A DNA stretch of 64,000 bases from an uncultured Myxococcales bacterium (GTDB lineage: Bacteria > Myxococcota_A > Polyangia > Fen-1088): contig CAZPUH010000492.1 in assembly GCA_964589215.1 (NCBI GenBank), forward strand, positions 10,221 through 74,220. Direction: 5' to 3'. Every line of letters starts with the position of its first letter. Within the stretch, counting starts at the first letter, position 1. Shown here one piece after another: positions 32,070 through 64,000 of the stretch. A model generated the notes under the pieces. It was not told the DNA's origin. It was given only the letters and a program-made list of their open reading frames with translations, and searched no databases. A program made the position numbers and the translations under genes.

Positions 32070-32075
32070 GAGCAC

Positions 32076-32441: not shown

Positions 32442-32995
32442 GCCACCAGCGGCGGGCGAGCCGCCACCAGCGGCGGTGCGCCCGGCATCACGATCCCGCT
32501 GACCGTCTTCGGCGCCCGGCCCCAGGCCACGATCGCAGCCTCGATGTTCTCCTCCCAGCTGTCGTCGCCACCAGACGGATACGGCACCGCGCCAGAGAGA
32601 ATGTCGCGCGCGCTGATGCCCTGGAGCTGGATGTGCGGCTGTTCGAAGTTGAGATAGGTCAGCCCCACCTGGGCGGCCAACAGATGGAACTCGTCCCAGC
32701 TGTGGCCCGCCGGCGGCGTCCAGGACCACGCTCCGTTGAAGTACCAGACCCAGTCGCAGGCCAGGCCGTACTGGTGCAGCGACTGCCAGGCCATCTCGTA
32801 GGTGACCTTTCGACCGGGCGTCCCGACGCCCTCCACGCGCCCCTCGGTGTAAAGCAGCGCCTGCCGATCGGGCGAGCGCCACATCTCGAACGGCTCGATC
32901 GGAAGCCCCTTGCCCTGCACCAGCGCCAGAAGATCGGCGTTGAGCTTTCGGAAGGTCGGGTGCAGGTGGCTCGGGTCGACGTCGCGCGCGCTCAT
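32438..32995 (-). CDS. endolysin, peptidase M15 (VanY / L-Ala-D-Glu peptidase-like)
   Basis: RSPDRQ, SLHQYGLACD (SxHxxGxAxD), EQPH motifs. Confidence 0.75.
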   Translation of the reverse strand: MSARDVDPSHLHPTFRKLNADLLALVQGKGLPIEPFEMWRSPDRQALLYTEGRVEGVGTPGRKVTYEMAWQSLHQYGLACDWVWYFNGAWSWTPPAGHSWDEFHLLAAQVGLTYLNFEQPHIQLQGISARDILSGAVPYPSGGDDSWEENIEAAIVAWGRAPKTVSGIVMPGAPPLVAARPPLVA

Positions 32996-41444: not shown

Positions 41445-42866
41445 TCACCAGCGCAGGTCTTCCTGGGGATCTGGCTCGTGATCCTCGCGCTCCTCGAAGA
41501 CCGTGTATTCGGGCAGCCAGTCGACCTGGATCGTTCCAGGGTGACCGCCGCGGTACTTGCCGAAGATCAGCTTGGCGGGGTGCCGCCCCACCGCAGGCGG
41601 CGCGCTGTCCCACCAAGGAAAGACCACGACGTCCGCGTCCTGCTCGACGGCGCCTGACTCGCGCAGGTCGGTCAGGTTTGGCGCCCGCATCTTGCCGTCC
41701 TTGCCCACCATGTTCCGATTGAGCTGGCTGCAGAGCACCACTGGGCAGCCGAGTTGTTTGGCCAGCTTCTTCATCGCGCGCGTGATCTTGGCGACCTCGC
41801 GCTCGCGCGTGCGCTCGTCCTTGTCGGCCTCCACCAACCCCAGGTAGTCGACGATCACCAGCGCGCGCCCCTCCGGTGCGTGCCGCGCGCGCCAGCGCCG
41901 CGCCTCAGCGCAGATCTGCTGGGTGCGCAGGACGCGTTCGTCGACCCACAACGGGATTTCGTACAGCTTGCCCATCGCGCCCGTGAGGCGCACCCATTCG
42001 GGTCCGGTGAGCCGCCCGAGTCCGATCGCGTGACCGTTCACCTTGGCCGCGTTGGCCATGGCGCGCTCGATCAGTTCGTCTCGGCTCATCTCCAGCGAAA
42101 ACACCAGCGTGGGCACGCCCGCTCGAGCAGCCGCCACCGCCACCGTGTTGACCGCCCAGGCGGTCTTCCCGCCGCCCGGACGCGCGGCGACGATGATCAG
42201 GTGCTTGGCCCGAAGGCCGCCCACTTTGCGATCCACCGACGCGATCCCGGTCGGCACCAGGAAGTCCTCCGGCGCGCTGGCCCGTCGTTCGATCCGCTCG
42301 GTGACGTCGACCAGCACCTCGCCGATTCGCCGCGGGCCATCGTCGCCGCGCAGCTCGAGTCCCGCCACCGATCCCCGTAGGTCGTTCAGGAACGCCTCGA
42401 CGTCGGTTGGCCCCCCGTAGGCCACCGACACCGCCTCCAGGCATGTCGCGATCGCCCGCCGCAACGTTGCCTTGGCCGCGATCACCCTGGCGTAGTGCCG
42501 AACGTTCTCCGCCGTCGGCGTGTCATTCGCCAGCGAGACCAAGAACGCCTCGCCCCCGTCCAGCCGCTGCAGCCGCCCGCGAGCGCGGAGTTCGTCGGCA
42601 ACCGCCAAAATCTCCACCGGCCGACCCGCTGCGGCGACGTCCCGCATCACCTCGAAGATCTCCCGGTGCACGGGGAAGAAGAAATCGTCCACCCCGAGAT
42701 CGGTCAGGTCGTCGAGCGACGCAGGCCGGATGAACACCGACCCCAGCGCCCCCCGCTCCGCCCGTTCGCTGTGCGGCGGCACCTTCCCAACCAGGTCGAG
42801 CGTGGCATTTTTCCCCACGCCGTCAGACCGCCTGGCTTCGCTTCTGCTGCGCGCGTTCTCGTCCAA
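41445..42866 (-). CDS. dnaB: replicative DNA helicase DnaB
   Basis: PPHSERAERGALGSVF N-terminal motif, Walker A ARPGGGKT, FSLEMS, IVDYLGL. The start (TTG 42866) is uncertain. Confidence 0.85.
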   Translation of the reverse strand: MDENARSRSEARRSDGVGKNATLDLVGKVPPHSERAERGALGSVFIRPASLDDLTDLGVDDFFFPVHREIFEVMRDVAAAGRPVEILAVADELRARGRLQRLDGGEAFLVSLANDTPTAENVRHYARVIAAKATLRRAIATCLEAVSVAYGGPTDVEAFLNDLRGSVAGLELRGDDGPRRIGEVLVDVTERIERRASAPEDFLVPTGIASVDRKVGGLRAKHLIIVAARPGGGKTAWAVNTVAVAAARAGVPTLVFSLEMSRDELIERAMANAAKVNGHAIGLGRLTGPEWVRLTGAMGKLYEIPLWVDERVLRTQQICAEARRWRARHAPEGRALVIVDYLGLVEADKDERTREREVAKITRAMKKLAKQLGCPVVLCSQLNRNMVGKDGKMRAPNLTDLRESGAVEQDADVVVFPWWDSAPPAVGRHPAKLIFGKYRGGHPGTIQVDWLPEYTVFEEREDHEPDPQEDLRW

Positions 42867-46437: not shown

Positions 46438-47483
46438 GGCGGCGTCTCCTCGTCCGTCTGCGGGTTGCCCTTGGCCGGCTTGCGCGTCTTCTTCTCGCGC
46501 TCCAGCGCTTCGATCTCCTCCTGCGTCGGCGCCGCCGCCGCGCGGTCAGCCGCGTCGGGGTCGTCACCTGCGGGCTGGCTTTTGACCTCCGGCTTGGGGG
46601 CCGGCTCCTTGGTCTCCGGCTTCGCGTTCGCCGCGGACTCCGGGCGCTTGATCGGCTCGCGCTTGCCGACCTCTCCGGGGATCGGGGTGGCCGTCATGAT
46701 CTGGGGGAACACCTCGTCGACCGGCTCGCCGTCCTTCACGCGCGTGCCAAGACCGATCAGCACCTCGATGTCCTCGATCGTGACGTCGTCCAGATGCTCA
46801 CGCTCGACCACCGCCAACATACGCTCGACCGACACACCCATCCGCTGGCAGGCCGCGGCGATGTCCTTCCGCTTCTCCGGCATCGATTTGCCCTCGCCGG
46901 CGGCCATCTGTCGGACGCGCACGAAGATCTGATCCACCAGGGCCCGCGGCACGACTCGGAAGATCGCGTTTCGGAGCGCGATCGAGCTGGCCGCATTCTG
47001 GGTGAGGATGATCATGTCCTCGCTGTAGCGGTGACCTTCGGATGTCGTGATCCGGCGCTTCACCTCGGAGATCATGCGGACGTTCCGCTGGACGTCCCAG
47101 CAGATGCCCTGGCACGTCACCGTCGTTTCATCGACGTCCACCGGGCGCGCGGCGGCATGCAGGTTGGTGTACGTCGACGCCACGATTTCGGCCAGACGGA
47201 TCGACGGTCCGATGATGTACTTGATCTTGCCCTTCTCCCGCCGCTTGAGCGTGTACATGCAGCTCTTCGCGACCTCCTGACTGGTGATCGCGATCGAAGT
47301 GGCTTCGCGCACGAACGTGCCGACGCTACGCGGATACCGATGGGCCGCGTCCAGCTGGGCGTCGACCTCGCTCCGATTGAGGGCTGACAGCGTCTGGGTG
47401 TCTGGTCGGATCAGCTGCGCCTCCTCGTCCATCCGCATCAAGTCCGTGTTCACGTCGTCTTCATCGTTCGTCGCCATCGTCAC
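46422..47483 (-). CDS. putative single-strand annealing recombinase
   Basis: 353 aa, immediately downstream of the Cas4-like exonuclease, the classic exo/annealase pairing. I did not recognise a family. Confidence 0.4.
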   Translation of the reverse strand: MTMATNDEDDVNTDLMRMDEEAQLIRPDTQTLSALNRSEVDAQLDAAHRYPRSVGTFVREATSIAITSQEVAKSCMYTLKRREKGKIKYIIGPSIRLAEIVASTYTNLHAAARPVDVDETTVTCQGICWDVQRNVRMISEVKRRITTSEGHRYSEDMIILTQNAASSIALRNAIFRVVPRALVDQIFVRVRQMAAGEGKSMPEKRKDIAAACQRMGVSVERMLAVVEREHLDDVTIEDIEVLIGLGTRVKDGEPVDEVFPQIMTATPIPGEVGKREPIKRPESAANAKPETKEPAPKPEVKSQPAGDDPDAADRAAAAPTQEEIEALEREKKTRKPAKGNPQTDEETPPWLKK

Positions 47484-48640
47484 TCCTTGACCCGCAGGTC
47501 CATCAGCTTTTCGTTGGTCTCGGTCGTCACCGCTCCGGCCGCCTCAAGGGCCTCGGCAACAGCTTCGATCGCTTTCTTCTTCCCACCCTTTGGCGTCTTC
47601 GCCGCCACCGCGTCGTCGACCGCCGACATCCCGATCTTCATGCAGCCCAGGATTTCGTCTTCTGTCAGGTGCTCGCGAAGCACTGGCAGCCCCAGCTTCG
47701 GTGATACTACGCGCCGGGGGCTGTCAATGAAGCGCAGCTCCCGGCCGTCACCGTCCGGCAGCGCGCCGCCGGCCGCGCGCACCCGCTTCTGGACGGCCTC
47801 GTGCAGGCTCTTGCCCAGCCGCTCGACCGACTTCCAGCGCCGCCAGATAGAGACCACCTCGCTGTCCGACAGGTCGCCCAAGCCAGCCTCGACCTTCGCC
47901 GCCATGGCCTCGCCGCCGAACACCAGGACGTCCCGCCGCGCGGTCGTCGCGAGCGCCGGGCAGGCCGCCGCGCGCGGGCAGATCGAGCAGTGGCCCCCCG
48001 GGTGGTAGACGCCGTCCCACTGCACGACGCGCTCCCGAACCTCGTCCAGCCACTGCCAAAGATTCTCTCGCGTCATCCGCTCTACGCGCTCGGTCTGGCC
48101 GGACCGCATCCAGCCGACGAACCCGTCCACCTTCTCGACTGACGGGTAGTTTCCCAGCACCAGCGCCGAGTACGCGTGCACTTGATGCTGGTAGTCCCGG
48201 TCCATCCGGCCGAACTTCCAGTCACCGTGGGCCGCCATCAGCCGCGCCACCGCCAGCGCGTCGATGTGCCCGCTCAGCTCCAGGACGACTCCGGGCGCGA
48301 TCTCGAAGCTCGCCTCCAGGTAGACCTCGCTCTGGGCCGGCCGCAGCCACTCGCGCACGGACTTCCAGACCTTCAGCCCGATGAATGCCGTGATCTTTAG
48401 GTCATCGACATCCACCGACCAGCGACGCGCGATCGGTTCCAGATCGACCTCGTAGAGCGTGGTGGCGTCGGCGTCCACCAGCGCCGCCATGACAGCGTGC
48501 CCGGCTGACCCGCCGTCGCCGGCGTCGCTCACCGGGTCGACCAGAACGCCGCCCTCTTGCACCGGACGAGCCGAGCCGGGGCAGGTAAAGGCCGCCGGCA
48601 TCGAGCTCGCCCGAATCCGGAAAACGACGCGCTCGCTCAC
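47480..48640 (-). CDS. PD-(D/E)XK (Cas4/RecB-like) nuclease with 4-Cys cluster
   Basis: GHIDAL...DWKFG, QHQVHAY (QxxxY). Cys pattern is C(19)...C-x2-C-x5-C (HCSICPRAAAC). Confidence 0.65.
   Translation of the reverse strand: MSERVVFRIRASSMPAAFTCPGSARPVQEGGVLVDPVSDAGDGGSAGHAVMAALVDADATTLYEVDLEPIARRWSVDVDDLKITAFIGLKVWKSVREWLRPAQSEVYLEASFEIAPGVVLELSGHIDALAVARLMAAHGDWKFGRMDRDYQHQVHAYSALVLGNYPSVEKVDGFVGWMRSGQTERVERMTRENLWQWLDEVRERVVQWDGVYHPGGHCSICPRAAACPALATTARRDVLVFGGEAMAAKVEAGLGDLSDSEVVSIWRRWKSVERLGKSLHEAVQKRVRAAGGALPDGDGRELRFIDSPRRVVSPKLGLPVLREHLTEDEILGCMKIGMSAVDDAVAAKTPKGGKKKAIEAVAEALEAAGAVTTETNEKLMDLRVKE
47703..47713 (-). promoter_or_regulatory. class I motif copy internal to the nuclease gene
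   Basis: Exact 11-mer (coding SPRRVVSP), 220 nt upstream of recombinase start 47483. No start codon lies within 10 nt. Confidence 0.4.
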
Positions 48641-50973: not shown

Positions 50974-51414
50974 TCAGCGAAGTGGCAAGCGCGACCGTTC
51001 GACTCGATCTGGCGCGAGTCGTTCCCCATCGCGTGCAGGCGAAGCTGGAGCTTCCACGCCGCGGTCCGCATAAAACGACCACGCGCGCCGCACGGTGTGC
51101 CAGATGGCTCCTGCGTTTTGCACGGCCTTCACCGTGCCGGTCACAATCACGCCGACGCTGCCCGCCACGGTGGCCGCGGTCTTCAGCTCGCTCGCGCGCC
51201 GTTCCCACCAGGCTGTCCAGCGCGGCCAGGCCGCCTGCCGACGCTCCCGGCGCGCGGCGGCCAGTATCGCCTTCTGCTGGGCCCTCTCCTCGCGCTCGCG
51301 CCGGCGGATGTCCGCCTGCTCGAGACGCTTCAGGTCCAGGAAGTCTTTCACCAGATGCCCGACCGGCGCCAGCGCGGACCACGGTCCGAGGGGGGCCGAA
51401 GCTGCGAGCGCCAT
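50974..51414 (-). CDS. hypothetical protein
   Basis: 146 aa. GC3 is high over the first ~110 codons. Confidence 0.5.
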   Translation of the reverse strand: MALAASAPLGPWSALAPVGHLVKDFLDLKRLEQADIRRREREERAQQKAILAAARRERRQAAWPRWTAWWERRASELKTAATVAGSVGVIVTGTVKAVQNAGAIWHTVRRAWSFYADRGVEAPASPARDGERLAPDRVERSRLPLR

Positions 51415-51446: not shown

Positions 51447-51857
51447 CTAGACCTGCGGGGCCGCCTGACGGTCGAGCTTCGCCTGGAACTTCTCGTTTGA
51501 AGGCACGGGGTTGCGCGCCAGGAAGCCCATGACGATGCCCGCCAGGCCGACCAGATGGAACAGCACCGTCACGTGCGGGTGGGACAGCATCAGGGCGTTG
51601 AGCCAGACGCCGTGCACGGTCTGGGTGGCCGCGATCAGGAGTGACAGGTAACCGAGCTTCTGGGCGGTCGCGACCGATACCACGACGGGCTGGAACCCGA
51701 ACGTCATCAGCACGCCCCCAAGGGCCTCCAAGCACGAAATCCCGCCGGGAGACATCGCCAGCTGACCCGCCATCGCGGCGCCCGCGACGGCGCCGACCAG
51801 CAGCGCGACCAGCGACATGAAGACCTTGAACACCTTGGCCAGGAGCGTGAGGTTCAT
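51447..51857 (-). CDS. multi-pass membrane protein (holin candidate)
   Basis: 136 aa from ATG 51857, with 3-4 hydrophobic spans (VFMSLVALLVGAVAGAAMAG, GVLMTFGFQPVVV, LGYLSLLIAA, LFHLVGLAGIVMGFLA). Confidence 0.5.
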   Translation of the reverse strand: MNLTLLAKVFKVFMSLVALLVGAVAGAAMAGQLAMSPGGISCLEALGGVLMTFGFQPVVVSVATAQKLGYLSLLIAATQTVHGVWLNALMLSHPHVTVLFHLVGLAGIVMGFLARNPVPSNEKFQAKLDRQAAPQV

Positions 51858-51863
51858 GACGTC

Positions 51864-51893
51864 ATCGTGGCAGGCAAAAAAAGACTTCGTCAA
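51864..51893 (-). promoter_or_regulatory. class II promoter-like element TTGACG-N18-CACGAT, 6 nt before ATG 51857
   Basis: Lies in a 260-nt non-coding gap. The spacing implies a leaderless start. Confidence 0.35.
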
Positions 51894-52118
51894 GATGCCT
51901 GCGCCTTGCGTTTTGTTTCGGCGTGCTTATGGGGGCCGCCGCGCCTTGACGATGTCGGAGCGAGGCCCACGTTGGCGGAACGATGGAAACCGCGGCGTTC
52001 GACAGCATTCCGGATGAGCATCCCACCGTCCTGGAGCCGGACGAATTCGAGTGGGTCGGCTGCGGGCCAGCCCGCGGCGCCTACGAAGAGGCGGTCCGCG
52101 ACCGCCAGGTCGAGCTCC

Positions 52119-52508
52119 TCAGGTCAGATTGCCGGCCAGCAGGTACTCGATTCGCCCCTGGCCGATGATCTTGATGGCGGTCAGCTGATCGCCGGCGTTT
52201 TGCGCGCGAATCAGCAGGAGATCGGAGACGGGGATCACTTGGTCGGTGCCTGCGCCGGAGGTGAGCTTCACCACCAGGCTCTGCCCATCGACCGCGCGAA
52301 CCGCGAACACGCGGATCGCGGTGATCTGCTGACCTAGGTTCGGCAGGAAAGGTGAGCCGGTCGTGCCGTTGATGCTGGCCGCGCCCGCGTAGGCGGCGTC
52401 GTAGGTGCCCCGGAACGCCAGGTCCAGGGTCTGCATGAGCGCGGCGGCGTCCGTCGGCGGCGCGGGCGTCGAGTTGACGGTCCCGCTCATCGACACGTCA
52501 TACGACAT
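52119..52508 (-). CDS. hypothetical protein, paralog of 2644..3048
   Basis: 129 aa, MSYDVSMSGTVNSTPAPP...IPVSDLLLIRAQNAGDQLTAIKIIGQGRIEYLLAGNLT. Confidence 0.6.
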   Translation of the reverse strand: MSYDVSMSGTVNSTPAPPTDAAALMQTLDLAFRGTYDAAYAGAASINGTTGSPFLPNLGQQITAIRVFAVRAVDGQSLVVKLTSGAGTDQVIPVSDLLLIRAQNAGDQLTAIKIIGQGRIEYLLAGNLT

Positions 52509-52960
52509 CAGGACGGGCCCTTGGCCTGCAGGACGATCGTCGCGACTCCCGTGCCACCGGAGCCCGTGAACTTGATGCGAATGTACTTGAATTCGTAGAA
52601 GTCGATCGGGATCGGGAATGTCTGCGGCGAACCGGAGGCCGCCGGGGGGCTGGTCCCCAAGGTGTAGGTGCCCCACTTCGCATCCGAAGTCGGATCGTCT
52701 ACCCCCGGCGAGTAGTCGTTGCTGTACTGGATCGACCACGTCCCGCTTGCCGTTCCGGTGGTGCGGACGGCGTACCCGATGACGGTGAGCGTATCGACGC
52801 GGTAGGCGGTGCTCCTGACCGTCCCTCCGATCGTGATCTGCTCTTTGGCGTTGACGCTCGAGACATCGCCGGACCCGACCAGATGGGAAGCATGACCACC
52901 ACCGGTCGCGCACCCGAGCGCTGCGGCCAGACACCACGTGAGAACGGCGACACGGTTCAT
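52508..52960 (-). CDS. lipoprotein-like secreted beta-rich protein
   Basis: MNRVAVLTWCLAAALGCATGG. ATGA overlap with the Skp-like stop. Confidence 0.6.
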   Translation of the reverse strand: MNRVAVLTWCLAAALGCATGGGHASHLVGSGDVSSVNAKEQITIGGTVRSTAYRVDTLTVIGYAVRTTGTASGTWSIQYSNDYSPGVDDPTSDAKWGTYTLGTSPPAASGSPQTFPIPIDFYEFKYIRIKFTGSGGTGVATIVLQAKGPS

Positions 52961-53580
52961 TTCTTCGTCCCTTCCTTGGTGCCCATCTTCGCCGCATCCA
53001 GAGCGGCCTTCAACCTGGCCTCCGCCTCACCCTTTTCCTTCTGCAGCTTGGCGTTTTCCGCACGCAGCTGCTCCTCGTCTTTGCCTTCTCCTGCGTCGAG
53101 TCGGCGAACGATGTCCGCCGTGACGTCCAGCGCAGGAGATACGAACGCCGCCGCCCCACCGACAGGAACGATGGCGGACAGATGTCGCGCTCGTGCAATC
53201 ACCGGGAGGATGCGTTTTACACGGGCGTCGATTTGCTGGTAGTTCGCGTTCGCTCGCTGCTGATCCAGTTGCTGGTACTGCGCCAGAATCTGCTGCTGGT
53301 AGCGCTCCTTTGCCTCAGCTTCCTGGCACGCCTGAGTCTTACCTGCGATCGGCTGTCCCGCTGTCTTGGCGCATGCATCAGCGGCTTTCTTCGCGTCGTC
53401 CGCAGCGCGCCCGATCTCGCCGTTCCATTTGGCCTCGTCAGTCTTCAAAGCATCGGCAGCGGCCTTGCTGTCGGCGCAGTCTGCATGGACCTTCGCGAGA
53501 TCGTAGTAGACGCCCTCCGCTCGAGCGGCAACGGGCAGCAACAGCATGGCGGTGATGAGGAACACGACGATGCGCGGCAT
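52957..53580 (-). CDS. Skp/OmpH-like periplasmic chaperone
   Basis: Signal peptide MPRIVVFLITAMLLLPVAARA/EG, a Q-rich coiled-coil arm, and C-terminal ILPVIARARHLSAIVPVGG...DVTADIVRRLD typical of OmpH. GGAGA SD. Confidence 0.5.
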   Translation of the reverse strand: MPRIVVFLITAMLLLPVAARAEGVYYDLAKVHADCADSKAAADALKTDEAKWNGEIGRAADDAKKAADACAKTAGQPIAGKTQACQEAEAKERYQQQILAQYQQLDQQRANANYQQIDARVKRILPVIARARHLSAIVPVGGAAAFVSPALDVTADIVRRLDAGEGKDEEQLRAENAKLQKEKGEAEARLKAALDAAKMGTKEGTKK

Positions 53581-53593
53581 TGATGGTCTCCGT

Positions 53594-56500
53594 TCAGGGT
53601 ACGAGCAGGATAGAACACATCATATCCGGACAGTTCGACGTCGAGGGGTCGCAGTTGTTGGCGCTTCCGAGCCCAGTCAGATCCAGCCCCCACGTGTCAG
53701 AAGTAGATGAACCAGCGACTGAGACCGTTGAGAAATACGTCCCGTCCGGAGTACCGGACGCGAACGACAGATTCGCGCCCGTGTCGACACCGTTCCTCGC
53801 GGCCTTGAAGGTGTAGTTGCCACCCGTGATCGTGGCGTGCTCGTATTTGCACGACAGCGTGACCTTCGACGCCGCGACGCCAGTCGGATACTCGACCTGT
53901 GTGAAGCTGATGGAACCGAGGGGATTTAGAGAGTAGCCGCCCTGAACCAGCTCGCCGGCGTTCAGCAGCGTATAGAGCCGCGTCGTGTAGTACAGGCTCG
54001 CGACGAGAGCCGGAGAGACGCGAAGGAATCCTGTACCTGTCGCAGCCGTCACCACGCCACCCGCCGCCAGGTCGCCGAACGCGACCCCACCGCTGGCTAT
54101 GTGCAGGGCGTAGAGACCGAGCCCGTGAACGTTAGACGATGTCGGCGCACCGTCGATGTACAGGGTCGTCGCTTCGGTCAGTGCCGGAAGGCTGACGCCT
54201 GTGTAGAGCGGCGCGCCGATGCGCAGCGTTGACCAGATGCCGGAGGTCCGGCCAGCCGGGACGGTCGTGTTCGCAGGGCTGATCAAGAACAGCGTGTTGT
54301 CCGGTCCGTCCTCGAGACCACCACCACCGACAAAGAACTGCGCGTGGTCGAAGTTCGCGTTGTTCGTGTGGCCGACGACAAACGCTGCGTTCGTCGGCAG
54401 ACCGACGCCATTGATCCCTACCTGGTTCGCCAACGCGAGCTGGTTCGACCCGTTCACGGTGTGGTTCGCGTCGATCAGCAACGATGCGTTGGTCCGGAAT
54501 GGGCCGCCGCCGCTGTCGGCCGCGTGGAGCGGCGCCTGGAAGTTCAGCGTCGCCTCGTTCGTGACCGGTACGCCGTCGGACTCGACGACCTGGATCGTGT
54601 TCGTAAACGACGCCGCCGTGACACGTCCGTAGATGTCGACGGTTATGGTTGGCGTGACGTAGGTCCCGGCGGTGACACCGGAAGTGACCAGGCTCAGAAG
54701 CGGGTCCGCTGTCGTTCCGATGTTCACGATGCCGTTCGTTGCCGAGACCGAATGCACGTAGTCTGTCCCTGCCGAGGCAGGCACCAGGACGTGGCTGCCA
54801 TTGGTCTTGACGATGCTGTTCACCGCCACGCCGTCGTCTTCGATGTTCGTCGTGGCGAAGGTGGAACCGTCGTAGATCAGACCAGCGGATTCAGTGAACC
54901 CGCCGTTCGAGCCGCTGCCACGCGGGATTCGGTTGATCGACGCTGAGAAGATCCCCGGCGTAGATTGCCCACCGGATACGACGTTCATGAGTACGCCGTT
55001 CCCGATCAGACCGAGGTTGAACGCGCTGGTGCTGGTGCTACCGGTGACGATAGCTCCCTGGATCGTGATGTTGGGCGCCGTGCCGCCGGAAGAAAATATC
55101 GGCGCCGTCGCCGTCACGGCGGTTACCGTTCCGCCGCCCCCGCCCGATCCGTTTGTCGCTACGGTGATTCGACCGTGAGCGTCCCAAGTGATGTTGCAAT
55201 TCGTGCAGCTGCCGACGCCGATGATGTTGGAGAGCCGGGCATCTGGCAGGGTACCGGTTCCGAGATCAGATGCCGATCCGGACTGGGCCACGGCTGCCAG
55301 CGCCGCCCATCCATCCTCGCGCAGGAAGCGCGTGGTGCCGGCTATCGAACCAGGATCTGGCACCGCGCCGCGGGCATGCGATGGTCCGCTGGCGACGAAA
55401 TCGCTGATCCCCAGCGTGCGGTCGGCGGAAAGATCTCCGCCGCCGGTCAAAGGCGGAGCCGTCGCGATCGTCCTCGTGGCGGGGACCTTGCTGGCCAGAT
55501 CGCTAACGAGATTCTGGACGACGCTTTCGGTGATGGTGCCGAATCCCAGCGACGATCCGGACTCACGCAGGACGCCGCCAGAACCGGCCGCGACGGGGAT
55601 GTCCGCCCAGTTCCCCGTGCTGTTGCTTGAGCGACCCGGGATGGACAGGGGTCCGCCCTGCTGAAGGAACGGATAGGTGACGCCGTTGGCGTCCAAAGCC
55701 CATGTGCGGTTCGCAGACAGGTCATGGGGCGCGTGGTCACCGCCGATGCTGATGGGTGCCGTACCCTGCACCGTGCGCGAGCTCGGCGTGAGCCCCGTCG
55801 TGTTGATGATGGGGTTTCCGGCAACGCCATCGGGATTCGTGATCGTGATGGTGCCATCGGTGTTGGTCAGGGTGCGGTTGGTTGTGGTGCCGACACCGGT
55901 TCGGATCACGAAGCCGTTCCCCCCTGTGTCCGGGAGATAGGTCGTTGTGTCGACCACCAGGCGGTCGCTGGTCGCGTTCACGTGTCCGGTTCCGAGCCCC
56001 GTAATCGACGTCCCCGCGGTGGAGACCGTCAGGGGCGCCCACGTCGAGCTGCCGACCTTGTTACCGCAGGCGTCGACGATGCCGGCCGATGCCTGCGCCC
56101 ACGTCACGATCGTCCCCGTGCAGAGGCGGAGGTCACCAAGGGTGCCGGTGACGGTCGGCTGCGTGACCAGCACGATCGTCGTGCTGAACGCCCCCGTGAG
56201 GTCGACGCCGACGTCGGTGTTTCCGGCGCTGCCGCTGACGAGGTTCAGCATCGTGACCCAGGACTGCCCGGAGATCTTGATCGCCGGATGCGCGCCGGCC
56301 TGGGTCGCGACGATCGCGCCGAGCGTGCCGTTCATGGAGTTCATTGACAGGGCGGCCGGCTGTGCCCCATCGCTGATGATGCGCAACGGCCGCTCGCCGA
56401 TCGCGGATGCGCCGCCGAGGGTCACGCCTGCAAAGCTGCCAGCTTGTTTGCCGCCGATCGCGAGCCTAGGGTAAACGACCGCGCCGTCGCCAACGTAGAA

Positions 56501-58429
56501 CGATTGCGAGTCGCTGACGGCAACCGGGGGCGAGCTCGTCCCGTTCAGCACGTATGCCGGCAGAGAGATAGCGTTGTCGCCGAAGTCGAAGTTGATGAAG
56601 CCATCGATCCGCCCCGCACCGCCCACGCGCGGAAACGACACGCCGTCGACATAGACGTAAAGGCCCTGGGTGTGCCCGGTCGAGTCGATCGAGAGGGGGA
56701 CGCCGTTGCCGGCGGACAGCCCACCGAGGTTCGAGAAGGCGAGGAACATGTCCCCCTGCGGGTACAGGAGGCCGGTCATGTTGATGCCGACGAAGAAGTT
56801 CGACATGAACCCCGTCAGTCCGTTGCCGGTGATCCTGAACCCCTGCGGAGACGTCGGCACCGGCGTCACGACCCCCGGCGCCTCGATGTAGAACACGTCG
56901 CCCGTTCCCGGCGTGGCCGGCAGGGCGGTGTTGTTGCTCAGCGTGAGCGTCGCGCCGGACGCTCCGACAATCGCCGCGGTCACATTGCGAAGTGCCGCAG
57001 TCGCCGTGCTCGAGGAGAACCGGATCCGGTACCCGACCGGGCTGCCCGGCTCGGCGGGGAAGGTGACCGTCCCGCCGCCGTTGATGCGGCACGGGATCAC
57101 CGTTGTCGTCGCGCCGGCAGTGGGGTTGTACCCGCCCGCGTTCATGCTCGGCGCCGTCACCGCACCGACGTAGATCAGGTCGGCCGCCGACCCGTCGAAC
57201 GCCGTCACGCCCGCGGTGGCGTTGGTTCCGGTGCCGCGCGCGACGAACTGCGCGTACCCCTGCATGCCGTTGATTGCGGCGAGGAGCGAGTCCGAATAGG
57301 TCCCCTGGTTCGAAACGACGGCCGCCCTCCGGCCCGCGCCCTGCAGCGGGAAGATGCTGCCGAACCCCGTGTACGTCTTCTTTGCGACGAGCCCGGCTGC
57401 CTGCGTCGCCGCCGCGACGTCGGCCGCCGAGGACGAGACCGGATCGGCGTACCCCTTGTTTGCGTCGTTGCCGTTCACGGTGTCCACCGCGTAGATGCGG
57501 GGAATGCCGATCGGCCAGTTGGCGACGATGCCGGAAGTCGCAGCCGGGCCGATGGGGCGGAACGCCACGGTGGTTCCATCGAAGGTTGCCGCGGTGTTGG
57601 CGGTGAGCGCCAGGATCGGTCCCGGGATGGCGGTGCCCGCGGCGGCGACGCCGAACAGCGAGGGACCGGTCTGCGTTCCGAATGCCGTGACGTTGCTTCC
57701 CGCGGCGGCCGTGACGGCGCCGCTCAGCGCGTTCCGCTGCAGGAGGCCACCAGCCACAGCGAGGGTGGCATCGAAGTTGAGCTGCAGGTTTGTGCCGGAG
57801 AGGGAGAGCGGCGCGGAAACTCCGATCTCCGACGGTGGCGCAGGGCTGCCCGTGGGGTTGCCGAGCAGCTTGTTCGCCCCCACGTTCTGGATCTTCTGGT
57901 AGGTGACCGCGCCGTCGGCGACCTTCACTGTCGTGACAGCACCGTCGGCCAACTTGGCGGTCGTGATGCCGCCGGTAGCGATCGACAACGTCCCCGTGTT
58001 CAGCGCGAATTCTGGCGCGAGCGTCAGGCTGTTGAGCAGGCCGGAGCCGTTGAAGTAGGCCGCGGTGTTCGGTGTTCCAGACACGCTGGTGCCCGGCACG
58101 ACGCCGACCTTGATAGTGCTCGGGGTCGGCATGACGATCGATCCATCAGCTGGCGCCAGCGGCGCCTGGACGTCTGCCCCGCTGGCCGCGTTCCCCAGAA
58201 CGCCGCAGCGGAACAGCGGCGATCCCCCAGTGAACCAGATGCCGCATGGCAGTCCCGATCCTGGCATGTCTCCCAGGCGGATCGAGTTGCCGCTCGTCGT
58301 CGGGACACCCTGGTTCTTCGCCACGTGCCCCTGATAGTCCTGGTCCGTGTACAGAAGTTGGTCGGCGTGAGCGGCGCCGCCCACGACCACGCACACCAGA
58401 ATGGCGACGATGATCTTGATGTTCTTCAT
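53594..58429 (-). CDS. giant fibre-like protein with N-terminal signal peptide
   Basis: 1611 aa from ATG 58429 (ATGA overlap with the upstream stop). N-terminus is MKNIKIIVAILVCVVVGGAAHA/DQ. Tail-fibre-type repeat ITTAKLADGAVTTVKVADGAVTYQKIQN. G/T/S/A/N-rich throughout. The track extension to 58615 overlaps the previous gene. Confidence 0.7.
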   Translation of the reverse strand: MKNIKIIVAILVCVVVGGAAHADQLLYTDQDYQGHVAKNQGVPTTSGNSIRLGDMPGSGLPCGIWFTGGSPLFRCGVLGNAASGADVQAPLAPADGSIVMPTPSTIKVGVVPGTSVSGTPNTAAYFNGSGLLNSLTLAPEFALNTGTLSIATGGITTAKLADGAVTTVKVADGAVTYQKIQNVGANKLLGNPTGSPAPPSEIGVSAPLSLSGTNLQLNFDATLAVAGGLLQRNALSGAVTAAAGSNVTAFGTQTGPSLFGVAAAGTAIPGPILALTANTAATFDGTTVAFRPIGPAATSGIVANWPIGIPRIYAVDTVNGNDANKGYADPVSSSAADVAAATQAAGLVAKKTYTGFGSIFPLQGAGRRAAVVSNQGTYSDSLLAAINGMQGYAQFVARGTGTNATAGVTAFDGSAADLIYVGAVTAPSMNAGGYNPTAGATTTVIPCRINGGGTVTFPAEPGSPVGYRIRFSSSTATAALRNVTAAIVGASGATLTLSNNTALPATPGTGDVFYIEAPGVVTPVPTSPQGFRITGNGLTGFMSNFFVGINMTGLLYPQGDMFLAFSNLGGLSAGNGVPLSIDSTGHTQGLYVYVDGVSFPRVGGAGRIDGFINFDFGDNAISLPAYVLNGTSSPPVAVSDSQSFYVGDGAVVYPRLAIGGKQAGSFAGVTLGGASAIGERPLRIISDGAQPAALSMNSMNGTLGAIVATQAGAHPAIKISGQSWVTMLNLVSGSAGNTDVGVDLTGAFSTTIVLVTQPTVTGTLGDLRLCTGTIVTWAQASAGIVDACGNKVGSSTWAPLTVSTAGTSITGLGTGHVNATSDRLVVDTTTYLPDTGGNGFVIRTGVGTTTNRTLTNTDGTITITNPDGVAGNPIINTTGLTPSSRTVQGTAPISIGGDHAPHDLSANRTWALDANGVTYPFLQQGGPLSIPGRSSNSTGNWADIPVAAGSGGVLRESGSSLGFGTITESVVQNLVSDLASKVPATRTIATAPPLTGGGDLSADRTLGISDFVASGPSHARGAVPDPGSIAGTTRFLREDGWAALAAVAQSGSASDLGTGTLPDARLSNIIGVGSCTNCNITWDAHGRITVATNGSGGGGGTVTAVTATAPIFSSGGTAPNITIQGAIVTGSTSTSAFNLGLIGNGVLMNVVSGGQSTPGIFSASINRIPRGSGSNGGFTESAGLIYDGSTFATTNIEDDGVAVNSIVKTNGSHVLVPASAGTDYVHSVSATNGIVNIGTTADPLLSLVTSGVTAGTYVTPTITVDIYGRVTAASFTNTIQVVESDGVPVTNEATLNFQAPLHAADSGGGPFRTNASLLIDANHTVNGSNQLALANQVGINGVGLPTNAAFVVGHTNNANFDHAQFFVGGGGLEDGPDNTLFLISPANTTVPAGRTSGIWSTLRIGAPLYTGVSLPALTEATTLYIDGAPTSSNVHGLGLYALHIASGGVAFGDLAAGGVVTAATGTGFLRVSPALVASLYYTTRLYTLLNAGELVQGGYSLNPLGSISFTQVEYPTGVAASKVTLSCKYEHATITGGNYTFKAARNGVDTGANLSFASGTPDGTYFSTVSVAGSSTSDTWGLDLTGLGSANNCDPSTSNCPDMMCSILLVP

Positions 58430-59316
58430 GGGGTGATGGTTCCGTTGCATTCGCGCGCGTAAGCCGTCTGCCCTACCGGGGACTTCATCGTGATCTGGAT
58501 GGGCACTGCCGTTCCGGGGTTCGTGAACGAAGCCGTGAATCCAGTCTTCGCGTAGGTCGCTGACGAGGTGACCGCAGGCGATCCGACTGCTGTTCCGCCC
58601 CCCGGCGCCGTCCACCGGTCGACAAAGTTTCCGCCCACGTACAGCTTGAAGGTCGTGGCGCCACTGGGGCTCTTGGCTTGGAAAGCGAAGTTCGCGGTCA
58701 GGATGCCAGCTGGACGAACGGCACCGTCGAAAGTGAACTGCCAGATCACGACCTCGTTGCCGCTGGCGTCATCGGGAGAATCGTTCGCGCTGAATGACTC
58801 GCCCCCCGTACCCCCACCGCCACCACCGCCCGCTACGAGCCCCCGCACGGCCTCGAGCCAGCGATTCAGCTGGGTCGCCCAGCCGAGCAGAATGGTGATG
58901 ACGCTGGTGTCCTCGAGCTGCTCGAAGCCTCCCAGCTTGCGCAGCGTGCGCACCCCTCCACCTGGTCCCGGGATGGCGATGCCGGCCAACCGGCAGAGGA
59001 TGACCCGGACCCTGGTCTCGCCCGGCGATCCGGGGTTGATGGTCGCCTGGACGACGTAGGTGCCGTCCGTCTTGAAGCTGCCAGCGTCGCTGTCGACCGT
59101 GAAGCTGGCCGTCGTGGCCACGGACAGCAGGACGGGCTCCGGTCCGGCGCCGCCCGCCGCGCTGCCCTCCGGGCGTCCGACGAGCTCCCAGCGCACGTTG
59201 GTGACCCCGACCAGGCTGGACAGAGAGAGGGCCACGAGGTCCCCGCTGACCAGATCCTCGCGGTAGCCGGAGGTAGAGCCGGTTCCGTTGCGGGTTGAAA
59301 CAATCGCGAGCGGCAC
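58426..59316 (-). CDS. tail/baseplate-associated structural protein (putative)
   Basis: 296 aa with a poly-Gly linker GGGGGGGTGG. GTG start lies 6 nt after a TAACAT hexamer. Confidence 0.55.
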   Translation of the reverse strand: MPLAIVSTRNGTGSTSGYREDLVSGDLVALSLSSLVGVTNVRWELVGRPEGSAAGGAGPEPVLLSVATTASFTVDSDAGSFKTDGTYVVQATINPGSPGETRVRVILCRLAGIAIPGPGGGVRTLRKLGGFEQLEDTSVITILLGWATQLNRWLEAVRGLVAGGGGGGGTGGESFSANDSPDDASGNEVVIWQFTFDGAVRPAGILTANFAFQAKSPSGATTFKLYVGGNFVDRWTAPGGGTAVGSPAVTSSATYAKTGFTASFTNPGTAVPIQITMKSPVGQTAYARECNGTITP

Positions 59317-59360
59317 CCCGCCATGTTAGGCGGGGGCCCGACGAGCCCGCCAGAGGGGGG

Positions 59361-60917
59361 CTACGTCAGGGTGGTCATCCCGATCATCCGAACCCGATGG
59401 GCGTAGCCCTTGACGCTGATGTTCACGGTGTCCCCCGTTGTGCCACCCTTGAGCCACAGCGCCCCCTGCCCCGGAGCCGGCCATGGAAGGCGGCCGTTCG
59501 TCAGGCCGCCGACCGCGACCGCGGGAATTGATGCCACGAGCTCCATCGGCCCATAGCCGCTGCTGAACTGCGGCGAGATCCCGCCAGCCGTGGTGTCCGG
59601 ATGGACGTTGTAGTAGCCGGGGGTGGAGCCGACCAGCGCCGCACTGAGGGACACCGAGGCCGTCGTGGGAAAGCCGATCTGGGCCGCCGACGGCGGCGTG
59701 CTGAACGGATCGGCTGCGGCACCCGTGCGGACGACGAAAATGCTGTTTCCGCCCGCGACCGCTGATCCGAAGTAGGTGACGTCGTCCTCCATGATGAGAC
59801 CGGCCCGACGCGTGGTGTTGGCGACGACCATGCCGAAGCCGATGTAGACGGCGCCGGCGGGCGCGACCGTCTGACCGTTCACGGTCATGTTGGCCGTCGG
59901 TTTCCCGGTCGAGAGATTCGGCGGCGTCAGGCTCTCGACGATCGTGATCGGAGACAGAATGCCCGACGTGGAGTTCAAGCTCGGCAGCCTGTTGTGGCGA
60001 CCGCCGACCGCGTAGACGTAATAGATCTTGTTCCACTGGGCAGGTGCCGCCACGGTGAACGGATTCGCTGCGGTGTCTTGAACAACGCCTCCGTTGACGG
60101 AATCCAAGACGCCGTAGAACTCGTGCAGCTCGCCGTCGATCAGCACTCGGTGGAGGCCCGATACTGACATCGTCGAGCTGGCCGAGGCGGGATTCGCGGC
60201 CAGGTCCCACTTGAGTCCGAGTCCCGACACGACGCCGCTCATCGCGGCGAACGGGTACTCCACGCGCCGCCAGGATGCACGCGCCTGCGCGAACGAAGCG
60301 GCGGAGCCGGCCCCCGGTGGCACCCACACGTAGAACAGCGCCAAGGCGCCGACAGGAATCGCCGGCACCACCGGATTCCCCGAAGGTGTGCCCGCGATGA
60401 CCGACAGCGTGGCGGTCGGGGCTGACGTCTTGAAAACGTTCTGCGGCGTGATCGTGCGCGCCACGGGATCGACGAGAATGTTGCGGCTCTGCAGGTCGGT
60501 GTCGACCATCGCGGCCGTCGCCACAATGACGTCGATCCGAGGATTGGTTCCGTCCGGATTCGTGTGGGTGACCGTGCCCACCGGCCAGCGAACCTGCAGA
60601 TATCCGCTGTCGTCAGCGGTCAGCGTGGAATATCCGGGGTACCAAAGCAGGCCGGATCCGGCGCCGATCGTCACCGAGAATCCAGAGGCGCCGGTCAGCG
60701 TGGGTGCCTCTTCGATGCCTGAGATCGGCGTCCCGTTGAACTGAAGCAGATCCGCCGGCCCGCCAGGATTCGGAACATCGGAGTCGAACGATCTCGCCCG
60801 AGACGCTTCCAGGTCCTGACGAGCCTTTGCGGCAAGGTACTGGGCGCGCATCAGGTCGCTCGAGGCCAAGACCTCTCGGGCGTTCCACTTCTCGATTCTC
60901 TCGGTCACTCCGGCCAT
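59361..60917 (-). CDS. tail fibre / receptor-binding-type structural protein (putative)
   Basis: 518 aa, within the baseplate module. A TAGCAT hexamer lies 6 nt upstream of the ATG. Confidence 0.55.
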   Translation of the reverse strand: MAGVTERIEKWNAREVLASSDLMRAQYLAAKARQDLEASRARSFDSDVPNPGGPADLLQFNGTPISGIEEAPTLTGASGFSVTIGAGSGLLWYPGYSTLTADDSGYLQVRWPVGTVTHTNPDGTNPRIDVIVATAAMVDTDLQSRNILVDPVARTITPQNVFKTSAPTATLSVIAGTPSGNPVVPAIPVGALALFYVWVPPGAGSAASFAQARASWRRVEYPFAAMSGVVSGLGLKWDLAANPASASSTMSVSGLHRVLIDGELHEFYGVLDSVNGGVVQDTAANPFTVAAPAQWNKIYYVYAVGGRHNRLPSLNSTSGILSPITIVESLTPPNLSTGKPTANMTVNGQTVAPAGAVYIGFGMVVANTTRRAGLIMEDDVTYFGSAVAGGNSIFVVRTGAAADPFSTPPSAAQIGFPTTASVSLSAALVGSTPGYYNVHPDTTAGGISPQFSSGYGPMELVASIPAVAVGGLTNGRLPWPAPGQGALWLKGGTTGDTVNISVKGYAHRVRMIGMTTLT

Positions 60918-63060: not shown

Positions 63061-64000
63061 CTACCCGAAGCTGATGTCCTGCAGCCGCAGTCGGATGATC
63101 GTGCTGTTGGTGGCGGGCACGATGTCGCCGACCGGAACGGGCAGGCTCGCGTCGGTCACGATAACGCCGGGCACCGCGCGCGCGGCCGCGATCAGGTCGG
63201 AGCGGCGCAGCGGCTGGCCCGGCTGATTGAACTGACTCATGGCCACGGCGGTCGCGGCCACCGCGGCGCTGGCGGCCTTGGTGTCGATCCCGGACTCGAA
63301 GTCGAGATCGTACTGAACCGCCTCGAACACCACCGTCCCGCCCGACACGAAGACCGGGATACCGGCCGAGCGATACCAGAGCAGGTTGTCCTTCACTGCC
63401 TGAATCATCAGCGAGGACGCGTTGCCGTTGGCGTCGCCGATCACGAGCTCGACCGCGCCAGCCGGCAGCGCGGTGCCGGGATTCACGATCTCGAACGCTG
63501 TCGCCACCGCCACCCCGGACAGGTACTGCTTTGTCTGGCTGGTGTTGGCGGGGTCCGACGTCTGGGCCGCCAGCTGGATCGCCGCCAGGATGCCGCGCCG
63601 GATGGACAGGAAGAAGACCAGCGCGCGCCCCCGGAACTGCGCGTCGCTCTCGGCCAGCGTGCCGCCAGCGGCGGGCGCGGGGTTGGTGACCGTGATCGTC
63701 GGGTCGAAGGTGCTGTCCACGAAGGCGGTCAGCGTGTTCACCTGGATGTTCTGGTCCGGGCCCACGACGGCCGCGAAGGCGGAGATCGGCGTGGTCACAC
63801 CCTTCACCAGGTCGGTGGGCCCGAACGGCACGTCGGTCTGGAGGGAGAAGATCGAGCCGCTGGCCGTGCTCATCCGCGTGCCCGCCGCGATCGTGCCACC
63901 GCCCGCGCCGAATGTCGGGCGCCGCAGGACGACATCCACCGTGGCGGCCGCGGCCGGGTTCCTTGTGATCCCAAAGTTGTCGTACACCTTCCGGTCGAGC
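63061..64000 (-). CDS. baseplate J-like protein (N-terminus beyond window edge)
   Basis: The frame stays open to position 64000 (..LDRKVYDNFGITRNPAAAATVDVVLRR...AESDAQFRGRALVFFLSIRRG). The architecture resembles gpJ/gp47-family proteins. Confidence 0.55.
   Translation of the reverse strand, partial: LDRKVYDNFGITRNPAAAATVDVVLRRPTFGAGGGTIAAGTRMSTASGSIFSLQTDVPFGPTDLVKGVTTPISAFAAVVGPDQNIQVNTLTAFVDSTFDPTITVTNPAPAAGGTLAESDAQFRGRALVFFLSIRRGILAAIQLAAQTSDPANTSQTKQYLSGVAVATAFEIVNPGTALPAGAVELVIGDANGNASSLMIQAVKDNLLWYRSAGIPVFVSGGTVVFEAVQYDLDFESGIDTKAASAAVAATAVAMSQFNQPGQPLRRSDLIAAARAVPGVIVTDASLPVPVGDIVPATNSTIIRLRLQDISFG

Follow-up and report, generated by a model that had tools for sequence, protein, structure and literature searches.

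The window analysed here, a stretch of 64,000 nucleotides (67% G+C, nearly all genes on the minus strand), is part of a tailed-phage genome; our subject is a giant gene for a fibre-like protein within it, together with the genes that surround that gene. Following the gene for Baseplate J (63061..63987), the order on the minus strand is: genes encoding proteins of 545, 518 and 296 amino acids (aa), the last of which (58426..59316) would be a short fibre or adaptor; the giant itself, of 1611 aa (53594..58429); a Skp/OmpH-like protein of 207 aa (52957..53580); a predicted lipoprotein of 150 aa (52508..52960); and a small protein of 129 aa that lacks a signal peptide (52119..52508). The genes are tightly packed: the ATG of the giant overlaps the TGA of the 296-aa gene as ATGA, the Skp-like gene begins 13 nt past the stop codon of the giant (with GGAG upstream), the lipoprotein gene overlaps the Skp-like gene as ATGA, and the gene for the small protein, whose true start is at 52508, follows with a TGATG overlap. 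The original prediction had described the giant and its three downstream neighbors as coupled and co-transcribed; the coupling stands as described, whereas co-transcription is inferred from the tight spacing, a scan of the region for promoters and terminators having produced nothing above shuffle expectation.

Three lines of evidence agree on the ATG at 58429, the start proposed for the giant in the original prediction. An independent gene caller, in its calls on Logan contigs, gives the same start (and the same four genes), homologues of the giant begin at an equivalent signal peptide, and the possible 62-codon extension upstream is not conserved. From this start residues 1-22 (58364..58429, minus strand) read MKNIKIIVAILVCVVVGGAAHA, then DQ: a predicted Sec signal peptide with cleavage predicted before D23. 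The n-region carries K2 and K5, the h-region is 15 residues long (I6-A20; Kyte-Doolittle 3.84) and is followed by a Gly-Gly break, and A-H-A occupies positions -3 to -1; the protein thus has the positive n-region, the h-region of 7-15 residues and the small uncharged -3/-1 residues of Sec substrates cleaved by signal peptidase I. Signal calls, here and throughout, are based on a simple n/h/c-region heuristic plus conservation in homologues. This heuristic flags six of the ~68 window proteins as signal-peptide-like, three of which are contiguous at this locus, and the giant has the strongest hydrophobic core among them.

Two further points concern the 5' end of the gene. The possibility that a frameshift joins the 296-aa gene to the giant was considered and rejected: a stop at 58769-58771 closes the frame of the giant downstream of the Gly-rich linker of the 296-aa protein, and the signal peptide would in such a fusion become internal. 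Within the giant, at 58265..58276 (codons 52-55), GGGAG stands just 2 nt before an in-frame ATG for Met55 – a poor spacing. Met55 is conserved as GDM in the closest N-domains, and an internal start there would yield a signal-less cytoplasmic isoform, although this is a weak idea.

The mature part of the giant (~158 kDa, pI 5.0) belongs to a protein rich in glycine, alanine, threonine and serine (14.3, 12.0, 11.6 and 8.8%). Directly behind the signal lies an N-domain with a first conserved cysteine pair, C62...C75, in the motif GDMPGSGLPC...FTGGSPLFRC (58205..58246, minus strand). Residues 155-182 (57884..57967, minus strand) form a fibre repeat of DUF5907 type, ITTAKLADGAVTTVKVADGAVTYQKIQN, overlapped by the Pfam DUF5907 match (residues 162-220, 28.2 bits against a cut-off of 27), and this repeat also matches that of a Bradyrhizobium phage tail fibre. 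It is a widespread sequence: residues 1-200, used as a query against a library of 1.84 billion representatives, matched 3941 proteins through the repeat, and of the best 148 repeat-bearing proteins 48 have signal-peptide-like N-termini, most of these being apparent cellular surface proteins. The query was swamped by the repeat, and the N-domain itself was matched only in P0009 and P0046. The signal-bearing, fibre-like character attributed to the giant in the original prediction is therefore borne out by its start, its repeat and its fibre homologues.

Residues 300-830 (55940..57532, minus strand) make up a conserved central domain, whose invariant columns in two alignments read RIYAVD..NGNDANKGYADP ... 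GSTGNTDVGLDL ... PTVTGT.GD.RL ... TWAQA. The same domain occurs in shorter, signal-less tailspike-like proteins, and two tandem copies of it are found in single signal-less relatives (P0003; P0004, from locus L015; and L021 10001-13916). To the eye it resembles the beginning of a beta-helix enzyme, but the idea that it is a beta-helix or depolymerase was not confirmed, and no enzymatic claim is made: the AlphaFold2 (AF2) model reaches a mean predicted local distance difference test (pLDDT) score of 53.9, and there was no significant match in Foldseek, PDB-profile or Pfam comparisons. The C-terminus, from about residue 1480 to 1611 (53597..53992, minus strand), is a tip-like beta domain with a cysteine cluster (C1527, C1593, C1600, C1605) and a weak, below-threshold CBM_6 match (residues 1534-1580, E = 0.012); judged from reading the sequences, the signal-less fibres P0011 and P0012 end in a similar domain. 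Autotransporter, two-partner secretion (TPS) and type IX secretion system (T9SS) C-terminal domains were absent from the giant in Pfam and NCBIfam searches at E <= 0.1. The protein thus combines the homology of a fibre body and tip with a place in the tail module, directly downstream of the Baseplate J and fibre genes. What it lacks is an N-terminal baseplate-attachment domain: it has a signal peptide instead, and the anchor domain (residues 3-164) resides on the separate 296-aa protein, with a Gly-rich linker behind it and then a small beta domain at the C-terminal end (residues 170-294 match the C-terminus of an L003 protein from the baseplate region at 39% identity).

The 207-aa protein almost certainly belongs to the Skp family. 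It begins with MPRIVVFLITAMLLLPVAARA, then EG, a heuristic-positive cleavable signal (residues 1-21, …PVAARA, with A-R-A before the cleavage point), and continues with a core (22-163) and an extra C-terminal helix (169-202) ending in KK. The earlier call of Skp/OmpH likeness passes the Pfam threshold (OmpH, PF03938: E = 9.7e-13 and 49 bits, the gathering score being 32.4, with profile positions 4-141 of 141 covered) and is upheld by profile and structure comparisons. Alignment A1, which sets the window protein beside five homologues on related contigs, displays the N-terminal strand f/yVD..rV and the C-terminal motif D-l-T-.-e-V-i-.-r-L-n of Skp, and the A1 profile matches solved Skp/OmpH chains end to end over positions 22-163 (9yjt, 2e-9; 8gl8_G, 9e-7; 4kqt, 1e-5). 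The AF2 model (pLDDT 82.7) comprises a strand (24-27), a hairpin of two helices (36-72 and 78-131), a second strand (137-140) and a short helix. Compared to the PDB by Foldseek, it has only Skp structures as significant matches, all top seven being Skp: they include the SkpA of the Flavobacterium T9SS, Caulobacter CC_1914 and E. coli Skp (1sg2_C/1u2m_C: TMt 0.78, root-mean-square deviation 2.6-2.8 Å). Together these matches rule out both a coiled-coil artefact and an i-spanin.

The family is rare, with nine relatives in a protein database of 5.8 billion sequences and no tblastn match among 50,697 phage records. All nine phage Skp-like proteins carry signals or lipoboxes, the lipoprotein form occurring in L011, L012 and L013, and cysteines are present in both hairpin arms of the proteins of the window and L004. 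The G+C content of the Skp-like and lipoprotein genes falls to 63.5%.

Searching the database of 5.8 billion sequences gave 15 giant homologues (931-1789 aa), all in phage-type contexts except P0013, a cellular DUF5907 giant that stands in a tandem array on an 833-kb contig; no Skp is found near P0013 on that contig, so that it is uninformative. P0002, P0006, P0007, P0009 and P0010 have signal-bearing N-termini of the same architecture as that of the window giant and of differing sequence (e.g. MRRSRVLLPILALLSLGGVARA, then DQ), and in all five the signal is followed by the conserved motif and a cysteine pair. An equivalent n/h/c architecture is present in P0046, L011, L012 and L013. Conservation of signal architecture in the face of sequence divergence is typical of signals rather than of structural helices. 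Eight further homologues (P0003, P0004, P0005, P0008, P0011, P0012, P0014, P0015) have no signal: such proteins have at their start either the baseplate-anchor domain or fibre sequence itself. Residues 3-164 of the 296-aa protein in the window share 58% and 52% identity with the N-termini of P0011 and P0015; the long fibres of these phages thus carry, covalently attached, what must be a baseplate-anchor domain.

The co-occurrence of signal and chaperone is strict. Using a hidden Markov model of A1 on all six-frame open reading frames (ORFs), a Skp-like ORF was detected in all nine distinct contigs that carry a signal-bearing giant, and in none of 12 signal-less loci (L008, L009, L010, L014, L015, L019, L020, L021, L023, L027, L033, L034) in as much sequence as is available; of the latter, L019, L020, L021, L023, L027, L033 and L034 are complete signal-less homologues from IMG/VR and JGI metagenomes. 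The Skp-like gene lies 13 nt downstream of the giant in the window, 32 nt downstream in L003 and 20 nt downstream in L016; it is upstream of the giant and overlaps it in L007, is two genes upstream in L006 and four genes downstream in L004. In L011 it overlaps a 1067-aa signal-bearing fibre and in L012 it is 3.5 kb from a signal-bearing giant of 1531 aa, both loci having been found by searching IMG/VR with the Skp alignment. In L013 – a 72-kb contig from a metagenome-assembled genome (MAG) labelled Pseudomonadota, and the only match when one genome per GTDB species was scanned with the giant alignment – it overlaps a signal-bearing giant of 1754 aa. The distance between the two genes thus ranges from 0 to 3.5 kb, with a 4-nt overlap in three of the nine loci and a gap of 13-32 nt in three more. 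With relatedness ignored, Fisher's test gives 3e-6 for this distribution, or 2e-5 without the two loci found through Skp. The signal-bearing set is diverse, in that its members share 19-41% identity over the whole giants and their Skp-like proteins are anchored in both ways, as soluble proteins and as lipoproteins. Because the pairing recurs in all signal-bearing relatives, some of the fibre module would seem to be produced elsewhere than in the cytoplasm, the site of virion assembly.

A further expectation concerns cysteines, since closely spaced pairs of them are the look of disulfide-bonded loops in extracytoplasmic proteins. In the mature window giant nine of 11 cysteines have a partner within 21 residues, compared to 2.6 expected (p = 0.0016). 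The mature parts of the nine signal-bearing giants together have 78 of 95 cysteines so paired against 24.4 expected (p <= 0.023 for each protein), whereas the eight signal-less homologues show about what chance predicts (25 of 70; 25.5 expected). A pair at the position equivalent to C62...C75 is found in seven of the nine signal-bearing giants, the exceptions being L011, where the first pair is further in (96/109), and L013, where there is none near the N-terminus. The restriction of such pairs to giants with a signal argues that folding takes place in an oxidising compartment. Taken together, the conserved signal, the strict co-occurrence and the cysteine pairs give substance to the most unexpected element of the original prediction, an exported fibre with a periplasmic chaperone of its own, and the synteny with relatives points the same way. 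We consider it highly probable, from sequence features, that the giant is exported, and probable that it is the client or partner of the Skp-like protein.

L008, a close relative of the window phage, offers a naturally occurring swap for comparison. L008 and the window share Baseplate J (60% identity), the 545-aa and 518-aa genes (49% each) and the small protein (61%). Between the homologues of the 518-aa gene and the small-protein gene L008 has the anchor-fused, signal-less giant P0011, a 197-aa protein with a DxD motif and a 186-aa protein, and neither Skp nor lipoprotein in that slot; the equivalent slot of the window is filled by the genes for the 296-aa anchor protein, the signal-bearing giant, the Skp-like protein and the lipoprotein. 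The pair of giant and Skp thus appears to behave as an exchangeable cassette in the tail-fibre slot, and the genes upstream of the giant vary between loci.

Export signals are not limited to the giant. The DxD-motif protein, which matches no Pfam family, is encoded immediately downstream of the giants in L004 (14821-15504) and L012 (6549-7241), where it has a twin-arginine (Tat) signal (MHDRRDFLAGVAAIAVAGSALPARA, MHDRRDFL...), whereas its L008 counterpart (8811-9404) has no signal, residue 1 of the latter aligning to residue 31 of the L004 protein (37% identity, E = 5e-34). Signal-bearing SGNH/GDSL hydrolases – possible receptor-deacetylating enzymes – are encoded in four of the nine cassettes (L003 13188-14003, L004 16712-17599, L012 9246-9992, L013 16123-17010), and L004 has a second signal-bearing protein, of 248 aa, with a fibre-type C-terminal motif. 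The giant is therefore not the sole signal-bearing member: in these phages a set of fibre-module proteins has export signals that homologues in sister phages do not have. In addition, where the baseplate genes end in L003, L004, L006 and L013, beside or just before the cassette, a protein of ~325-360 aa is encoded whose sequence has the look of a short fibre.

The two remaining genes of the window's cassette behave differently. The 150-aa protein starts with MNRVAVLTWCLAAALG, then C, and has a lipobox (AAL-G-C17), with R3 before it and Ala at +2; the lipobox noted in the original prediction is thus present, and its cysteine is invariant in the two aligned homologues, from L004 (SIGC) and L009 (LVSC). 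The mature domain is beta-rich, and no match was obtained in Pfam, NCBIfam, PHROG, PADLOC or the PDB. Homologues exist in L004 and L012, and in L009 (7418-7855) a protein 55% identical to it is encoded directly upstream of a signal-less fused giant: the lipoprotein stays beside fibre genes with or without a fibre signal. The small protein had been called a paralogue of a head-module protein and is indeed 31% identical over 95 aa (E = 4e-10) to the 134-aa product of 2644..3048 (minus strand), a gene upstream of a scaffold-like gene and the gene for the major head protein; its length is 129 aa rather than 130. There is no family or PDB match for it in the same five collections, and its best homologue (L008 10041-10430, 61% identity) lies downstream of a signal-less giant. 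Since each of the two is also found beside a signal-less giant, the lipoprotein in L009 and the small protein in L008, neither tracks the signal peptide and Skp, and the picture of four genes forming one conserved unit does not hold. The 129-aa protein has no relation to export, and the lipoprotein would most simply be a separate superinfection-blocking lipoprotein of the Llp/Cor kind.

A spanin pair formed by the Skp-like protein and the lipoprotein was also considered. An i-spanin has an uncleaved N-terminal transmembrane anchor and a periplasmic coiled coil, and an o-spanin is a small lipoprotein encoded within or just after it. The candidate was rejected on account of the cleavable signal, the Skp fold and a lipoprotein partner that is inconsistent across loci; set against an o-spanin, the mature lipoprotein has 134 aa, is beta-rich and contains 6% Pro.

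The wider window shows the phage clearly. It encodes an SPP1-type portal (9223..10944), a Mu F-like protein (5588..6529), a major head protein (3..1133; phrog_1357), a DnaB helicase (41445..42866), a PD-(D/E)XK nuclease (47480..48640) and a VanY-like peptidase that is the putative endolysin (32438..32995, 19 kb from the cassette). An identical giant is found on contigs of 80-88 kb from NCBI and from the Logan assemblies of SRR12170516 and SRR12170515. Megablast of 50000-64000 against the 50,697 phage records matched nothing; the portal is 26% identical to Ralstonia phage portals, and portal and giant have remote matches only, to phages of Ralstonia, Komagataeibacter and Bradyrhizobium, so that none of the cultured phages is close. 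The sole hints of a host are these remote portal matches and the Pseudomonadota label of the MAG that holds L013. Among 35 further window proteins scanned there was no DsbA/thioredoxin, secretin or integrase.

Several other features of the window deserve mention. Over the fibre region (52000..60000) the plus-strand GC skew switches sign, probably because fibre genes rich in Thr, Ala, Ser and Gly give a C-rich coding strand. Directly downstream of the cassette are genes for a 148-aa multi-pass holin-like protein (51447..51893) and for a 146-aa protein whose N-terminus is rich in Arg and Glu and which has a transmembrane segment at its centre (50974..51414); homologues of this second protein come after the Skp region in L004 and L012. 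Other lipoproteins are a 301-aa protein with the lipobox LIAAC, encoded in the head module with the portal gene on one side and the Mu F-like gene on the other (6713..7618), and a 94-aa protein with the lipobox LAGC and an acidic tail (23374..23658), 53% identical to part of an L012 ORF (16123-17031). Homologues of the former (by BLAST) sit in the fibre/Skp region with the giant in L003, L006 and L007, and the lipoprotein adjoining the giant in L013 resembles it by N-terminal motif only; the 121-aa gene upstream of and overlapping the latter has no transmembrane segment, so the pair is not an obvious spanin. A beta-rich, signal-bearing protein of 178 aa (28650..29186) could be an outer-membrane protein and hence a possible alternative client of Skp. 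It is followed by a 288-aa protein (27781..28647) with papain-like motifs (…NSWSEGWGDRGMFWM) and a weak PHROG peptidase match. The window also encodes DUF932, DUF5131, Mom-family DNA-modification, DUF4326, DUF3850 and DHHA1-domain proteins (including 13863..14906 and 25244..26386), a 719-aa protein with an intein splicing domain and a LAGLIDADG homing endonuclease (30030..32189), and a 499-aa protein (18457..19956) with a zinc metallopeptidase-like region and a C-terminal Fe/Mn superoxide dismutase domain (E = 3.5e-15), the latter unusual in a phage.

How might these parts work together? The reading we adopt, while giving it about an even chance, is that a giant derived from a tail fibre has been moved out of the cytoplasmic virion assembly line. 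Going by the gene overlaps, it would be made late, together with the baseplate and fibre genes; the conserved signal peptide suggests that it would then be exported unfolded through Sec and cleaved after A-H-A22. In the periplasm a trimer of phage Skp would hold the giant while local disulfide loops form and the protein oligomerises, a step proposed because the co-occurrence of signal and Skp is strict and because of the cysteine-pair signature. The mature giant, rather than being built into the virion, may act as an accessory resembling a receptor-binding protein on the host envelope or on receptor polysaccharide, in the infected cell or after release by lysis. By masking or destroying receptors it could exclude other phages and keep progeny off debris. 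That the giant ends up outside the virion is itself a matter on which the chances seem to us evenly balanced; we lean slightly towards it because the giant has no anchor domain, the upstream genes vary, separate short-fibre proteins exist, esterases are secreted from some of the cassettes, and exported neighbors of receptor-binding proteins are a known class.

A number of observations weigh against this reading. Export itself is deduced from a heuristic and from conservation, and the co-occurrence statistic is inflated by shared ancestry, several of the negative loci (e.g. L009, L019, L033, L034) having short flanks. No route across the outer membrane was recognised: there is no secretin or Omp85 among the window proteins scanned and no autotransporter, TPS or T9SS domain in the giant, while so rigid a fibre, with ~158 kDa in each chain, would be oddly shaped for a protein confined to the periplasm. 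Structure and profile comparisons did not bear out an enzymatic (beta-helix/depolymerase) nature of the central domain, and the window's own cassette has no SGNH esterase. Finally, the giant retains the fibre body and tip-like C-terminal domain of true virion fibres, is translationally coupled to the anchor protein, and has an N-domain that is conserved across otherwise mosaic giants (P0009, P0046, L012), as is usual for virion-attachment domains.

These last three features fit equally well or better with a different outcome, in which the giant is a long tail fibre of the virion after all: exported, folded with its disulfides under phage Skp alongside the Tat- and Sec-exported modifying enzymes, and then joined to particles built in the cytoplasm, either once the holin has opened the inner membrane or after lysis. 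Docking would be non-covalent, and the C-terminal domain of the 296-aa anchor protein is one candidate site. Apart from the ATGA coupling, the conserved N-domain and the fibre body and tip (the last recognised from reading sequences), such an outcome would account for the position of the giant, which is precisely where the close relative L008 has its anchor-fused giant fibre. It is also in keeping with the DxD protein, which gains a Tat signal where the fibre gains a Sec signal, as if the maturation pathway had changed compartment, with the 248-aa signal-bearing protein of L004 and its fibre C-terminal motif, and with paired cysteines, which suit a particle exposed to the environment. In T4, moreover, fibre attachment is the last and a separable step of assembly. 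Yet joining would be confined to the short interval between holin action and rupture of the outer membrane, or else would follow dilution; no recognisable docking partner is conserved beside the giant across loci; the short-fibre-like proteins of L003, L004, L006 and L013 mean that the giant need not be the receptor-binding protein; and no precedent in tailed phages was found in the full-text literature. On balance we regard a virion fibre as possible but doubtful.

Less probable still is that the Skp-like protein works for different clients – outer-membrane proteins or lipoproteins encoded by the phage – or relieves envelope stress in general, or is half of a spanin-like lysis pair, and stands beside the giant by coincidence. 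The phage does have further exported proteins that might need it (the two lipoproteins at 6713..7618 and 23374..23658 and the signal-bearing protein at 28650..29186), the cassette is followed by holin-like membrane proteins (51447..51893, 50974..51414), and an ATGA overlap such as that between the Skp-like and lipoprotein genes is seen in some spanin pairs. However, the contrast between nine of nine and none of 12 loci concerns the signal peptide of the giant and not the lipoproteins: L009 has the lipoprotein, yet its giant is signal-less and there is no Skp in the available sequence, and most loci lack a lipoprotein after the Skp-like gene. The Skp-like gene and the giant gene overlap each other in L007, L011 and L013, and a cleavable A-x-A signal or lipobox joined to a Skp fold is not the uncleaved anchor of an i-spanin. 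We judge this alternative improbable. Least credible of all is an ordinary cytoplasmic virion fibre whose hydrophobic N-terminus is retained, buried for instance in a trimer or in the baseplate: although the signal prediction is heuristic and the fibre homology real, nine diverged proteins keep the n/h/c architecture and small -3/-1 residues despite sequence change, their h-regions of 12-15 residues are too short for a membrane anchor, the cysteine-pair signature is found only in the signal-bearing set, and the giants are strictly linked to a periplasmic chaperone as well as to further proteins with signals, one of them a Tat substrate.

The accepted view is that tailed-phage particles and their fibres are assembled wholly in the cytoplasm, and that Skp is a chaperone with which cells handle outer-membrane proteins. 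Among 8 million full-text papers none was found that describes a Skp encoded by a phage or, for tailed phages, tail-fibre proteins bearing a signal, and none was relevant to the sample accessions; the parts are known in kind (Skp chaperone, Sec signal, fibre, lipoprotein), and their combination is, to our knowledge, new. The data point to a lineage of uncultured phages with an exchangeable cassette that comprises a giant with a Sec signal, neighbors with Sec, Tat or lipoprotein signals, and always Skp, alongside sister phages that are signal-less and Skp-less. Whatever the destination of the giant, this would mean that phages can bring their own periplasmic chaperone, that Skp scaffolds have been recruited for very large non-barrel clients outside the T9SS of Bacteroidota, and that fibre modules are switchable between compartments by the addition of signals. 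If the giant acts on the envelope, it would be a new kind of receptor-masking or receptor-destroying device. If, on the other hand, it proves to be a virion fibre, then the textbook picture of tailed-phage assembly changes: assembly in two compartments would be categorically new, a prokaryotic counterpart to the maturation of viral spikes in the endoplasmic reticulum. The signal-bearing and signal-less homologues offer a ready-made experimental contrast.

Known systems resemble this one in part. Cor of phi80/N15 is a superinfection-blocking lipoprotein of a kind similar to Llp of T5. Exported proteins encoded beside receptor-binding genes, such as the superinfection-blocking Llp, are an established class (PMC9586334). 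The window's 150-aa lipoprotein shares with them a place directly beside fibre/receptor-binding genes and a predicted outer-membrane destination; the likeness is one of position and lipidation only, the protein matching no described family and having a mature length of 134 aa as against ~60 aa for Llp.

Dedicated helpers encoded next to the fibre they serve are familiar from T4 (gp57A/gp38) and lambda (Tfa), and other fibres have intramolecular C-terminal chaperones. The likeness lies in the position of the helper gene; these helpers are cytoplasmic and of unrelated folds, whereas here the helper is of a periplasmic chaperone family and both partners have export signals. Sec-exported virion proteins are known from filamentous phages (M13 pIII/pVIII; PMC8310372), in which an adsorption protein with a cleavable Sec signal undergoes disulfide maturation in the periplasm, much as suggested for the giant. 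Inoviruses, however, assemble at the membrane and are extruded, and the window is tailed-phage DNA encoding a portal, a Mu F-like protein, a major head protein and Baseplate J, for particles that are built in the cytoplasm. Secreted bacterial giants with DUF5907 have the same type of repeat; those examined are cellular, while the phage giants are encoded in tail modules and have a central domain and tip in common with phage fibres and tailspikes.

The closest parallels are with Skp proteins themselves. E. coli Skp (PDB 1SG2/1U2M; PF03938) has in common with the phage protein a cleavable signal, a body built of strands and a long helical hairpin 'tentacle'. The phage protein departs from the Skp/OmpH family in being phage-encoded, in a C-terminal helical extension of ~40 residues and in its hairpin cysteines; most of the phage proteins have a mature pI of ~7-8.6, unlike E. 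coli Skp, which is strongly basic, and the presumed client is a fibrous protein of 158 kDa rather than a beta-barrel. SkpA of Flavobacterium johnsoniae, the best structural match, has a C-terminal extension helix as the phage protein does; sequence identity is ~20%, neither T9SS components nor a T9SS C-terminal signal on the giant is present here, and the host of SkpA belongs to the Bacteroidota, whereas this is a replicon of 67% G+C whose only host hint is Pseudomonadota. In the T9SS of F. johnsoniae the SkpA trimer (PDB 8GL8) structures the N-terminus of SprA and is needed for export of the giant adhesin SprB (PMC10994853): SkpA is thus dedicated to the secretion of giant fibrous adhesins and, in gripping the N-terminus of its partner, is more than a holdase.

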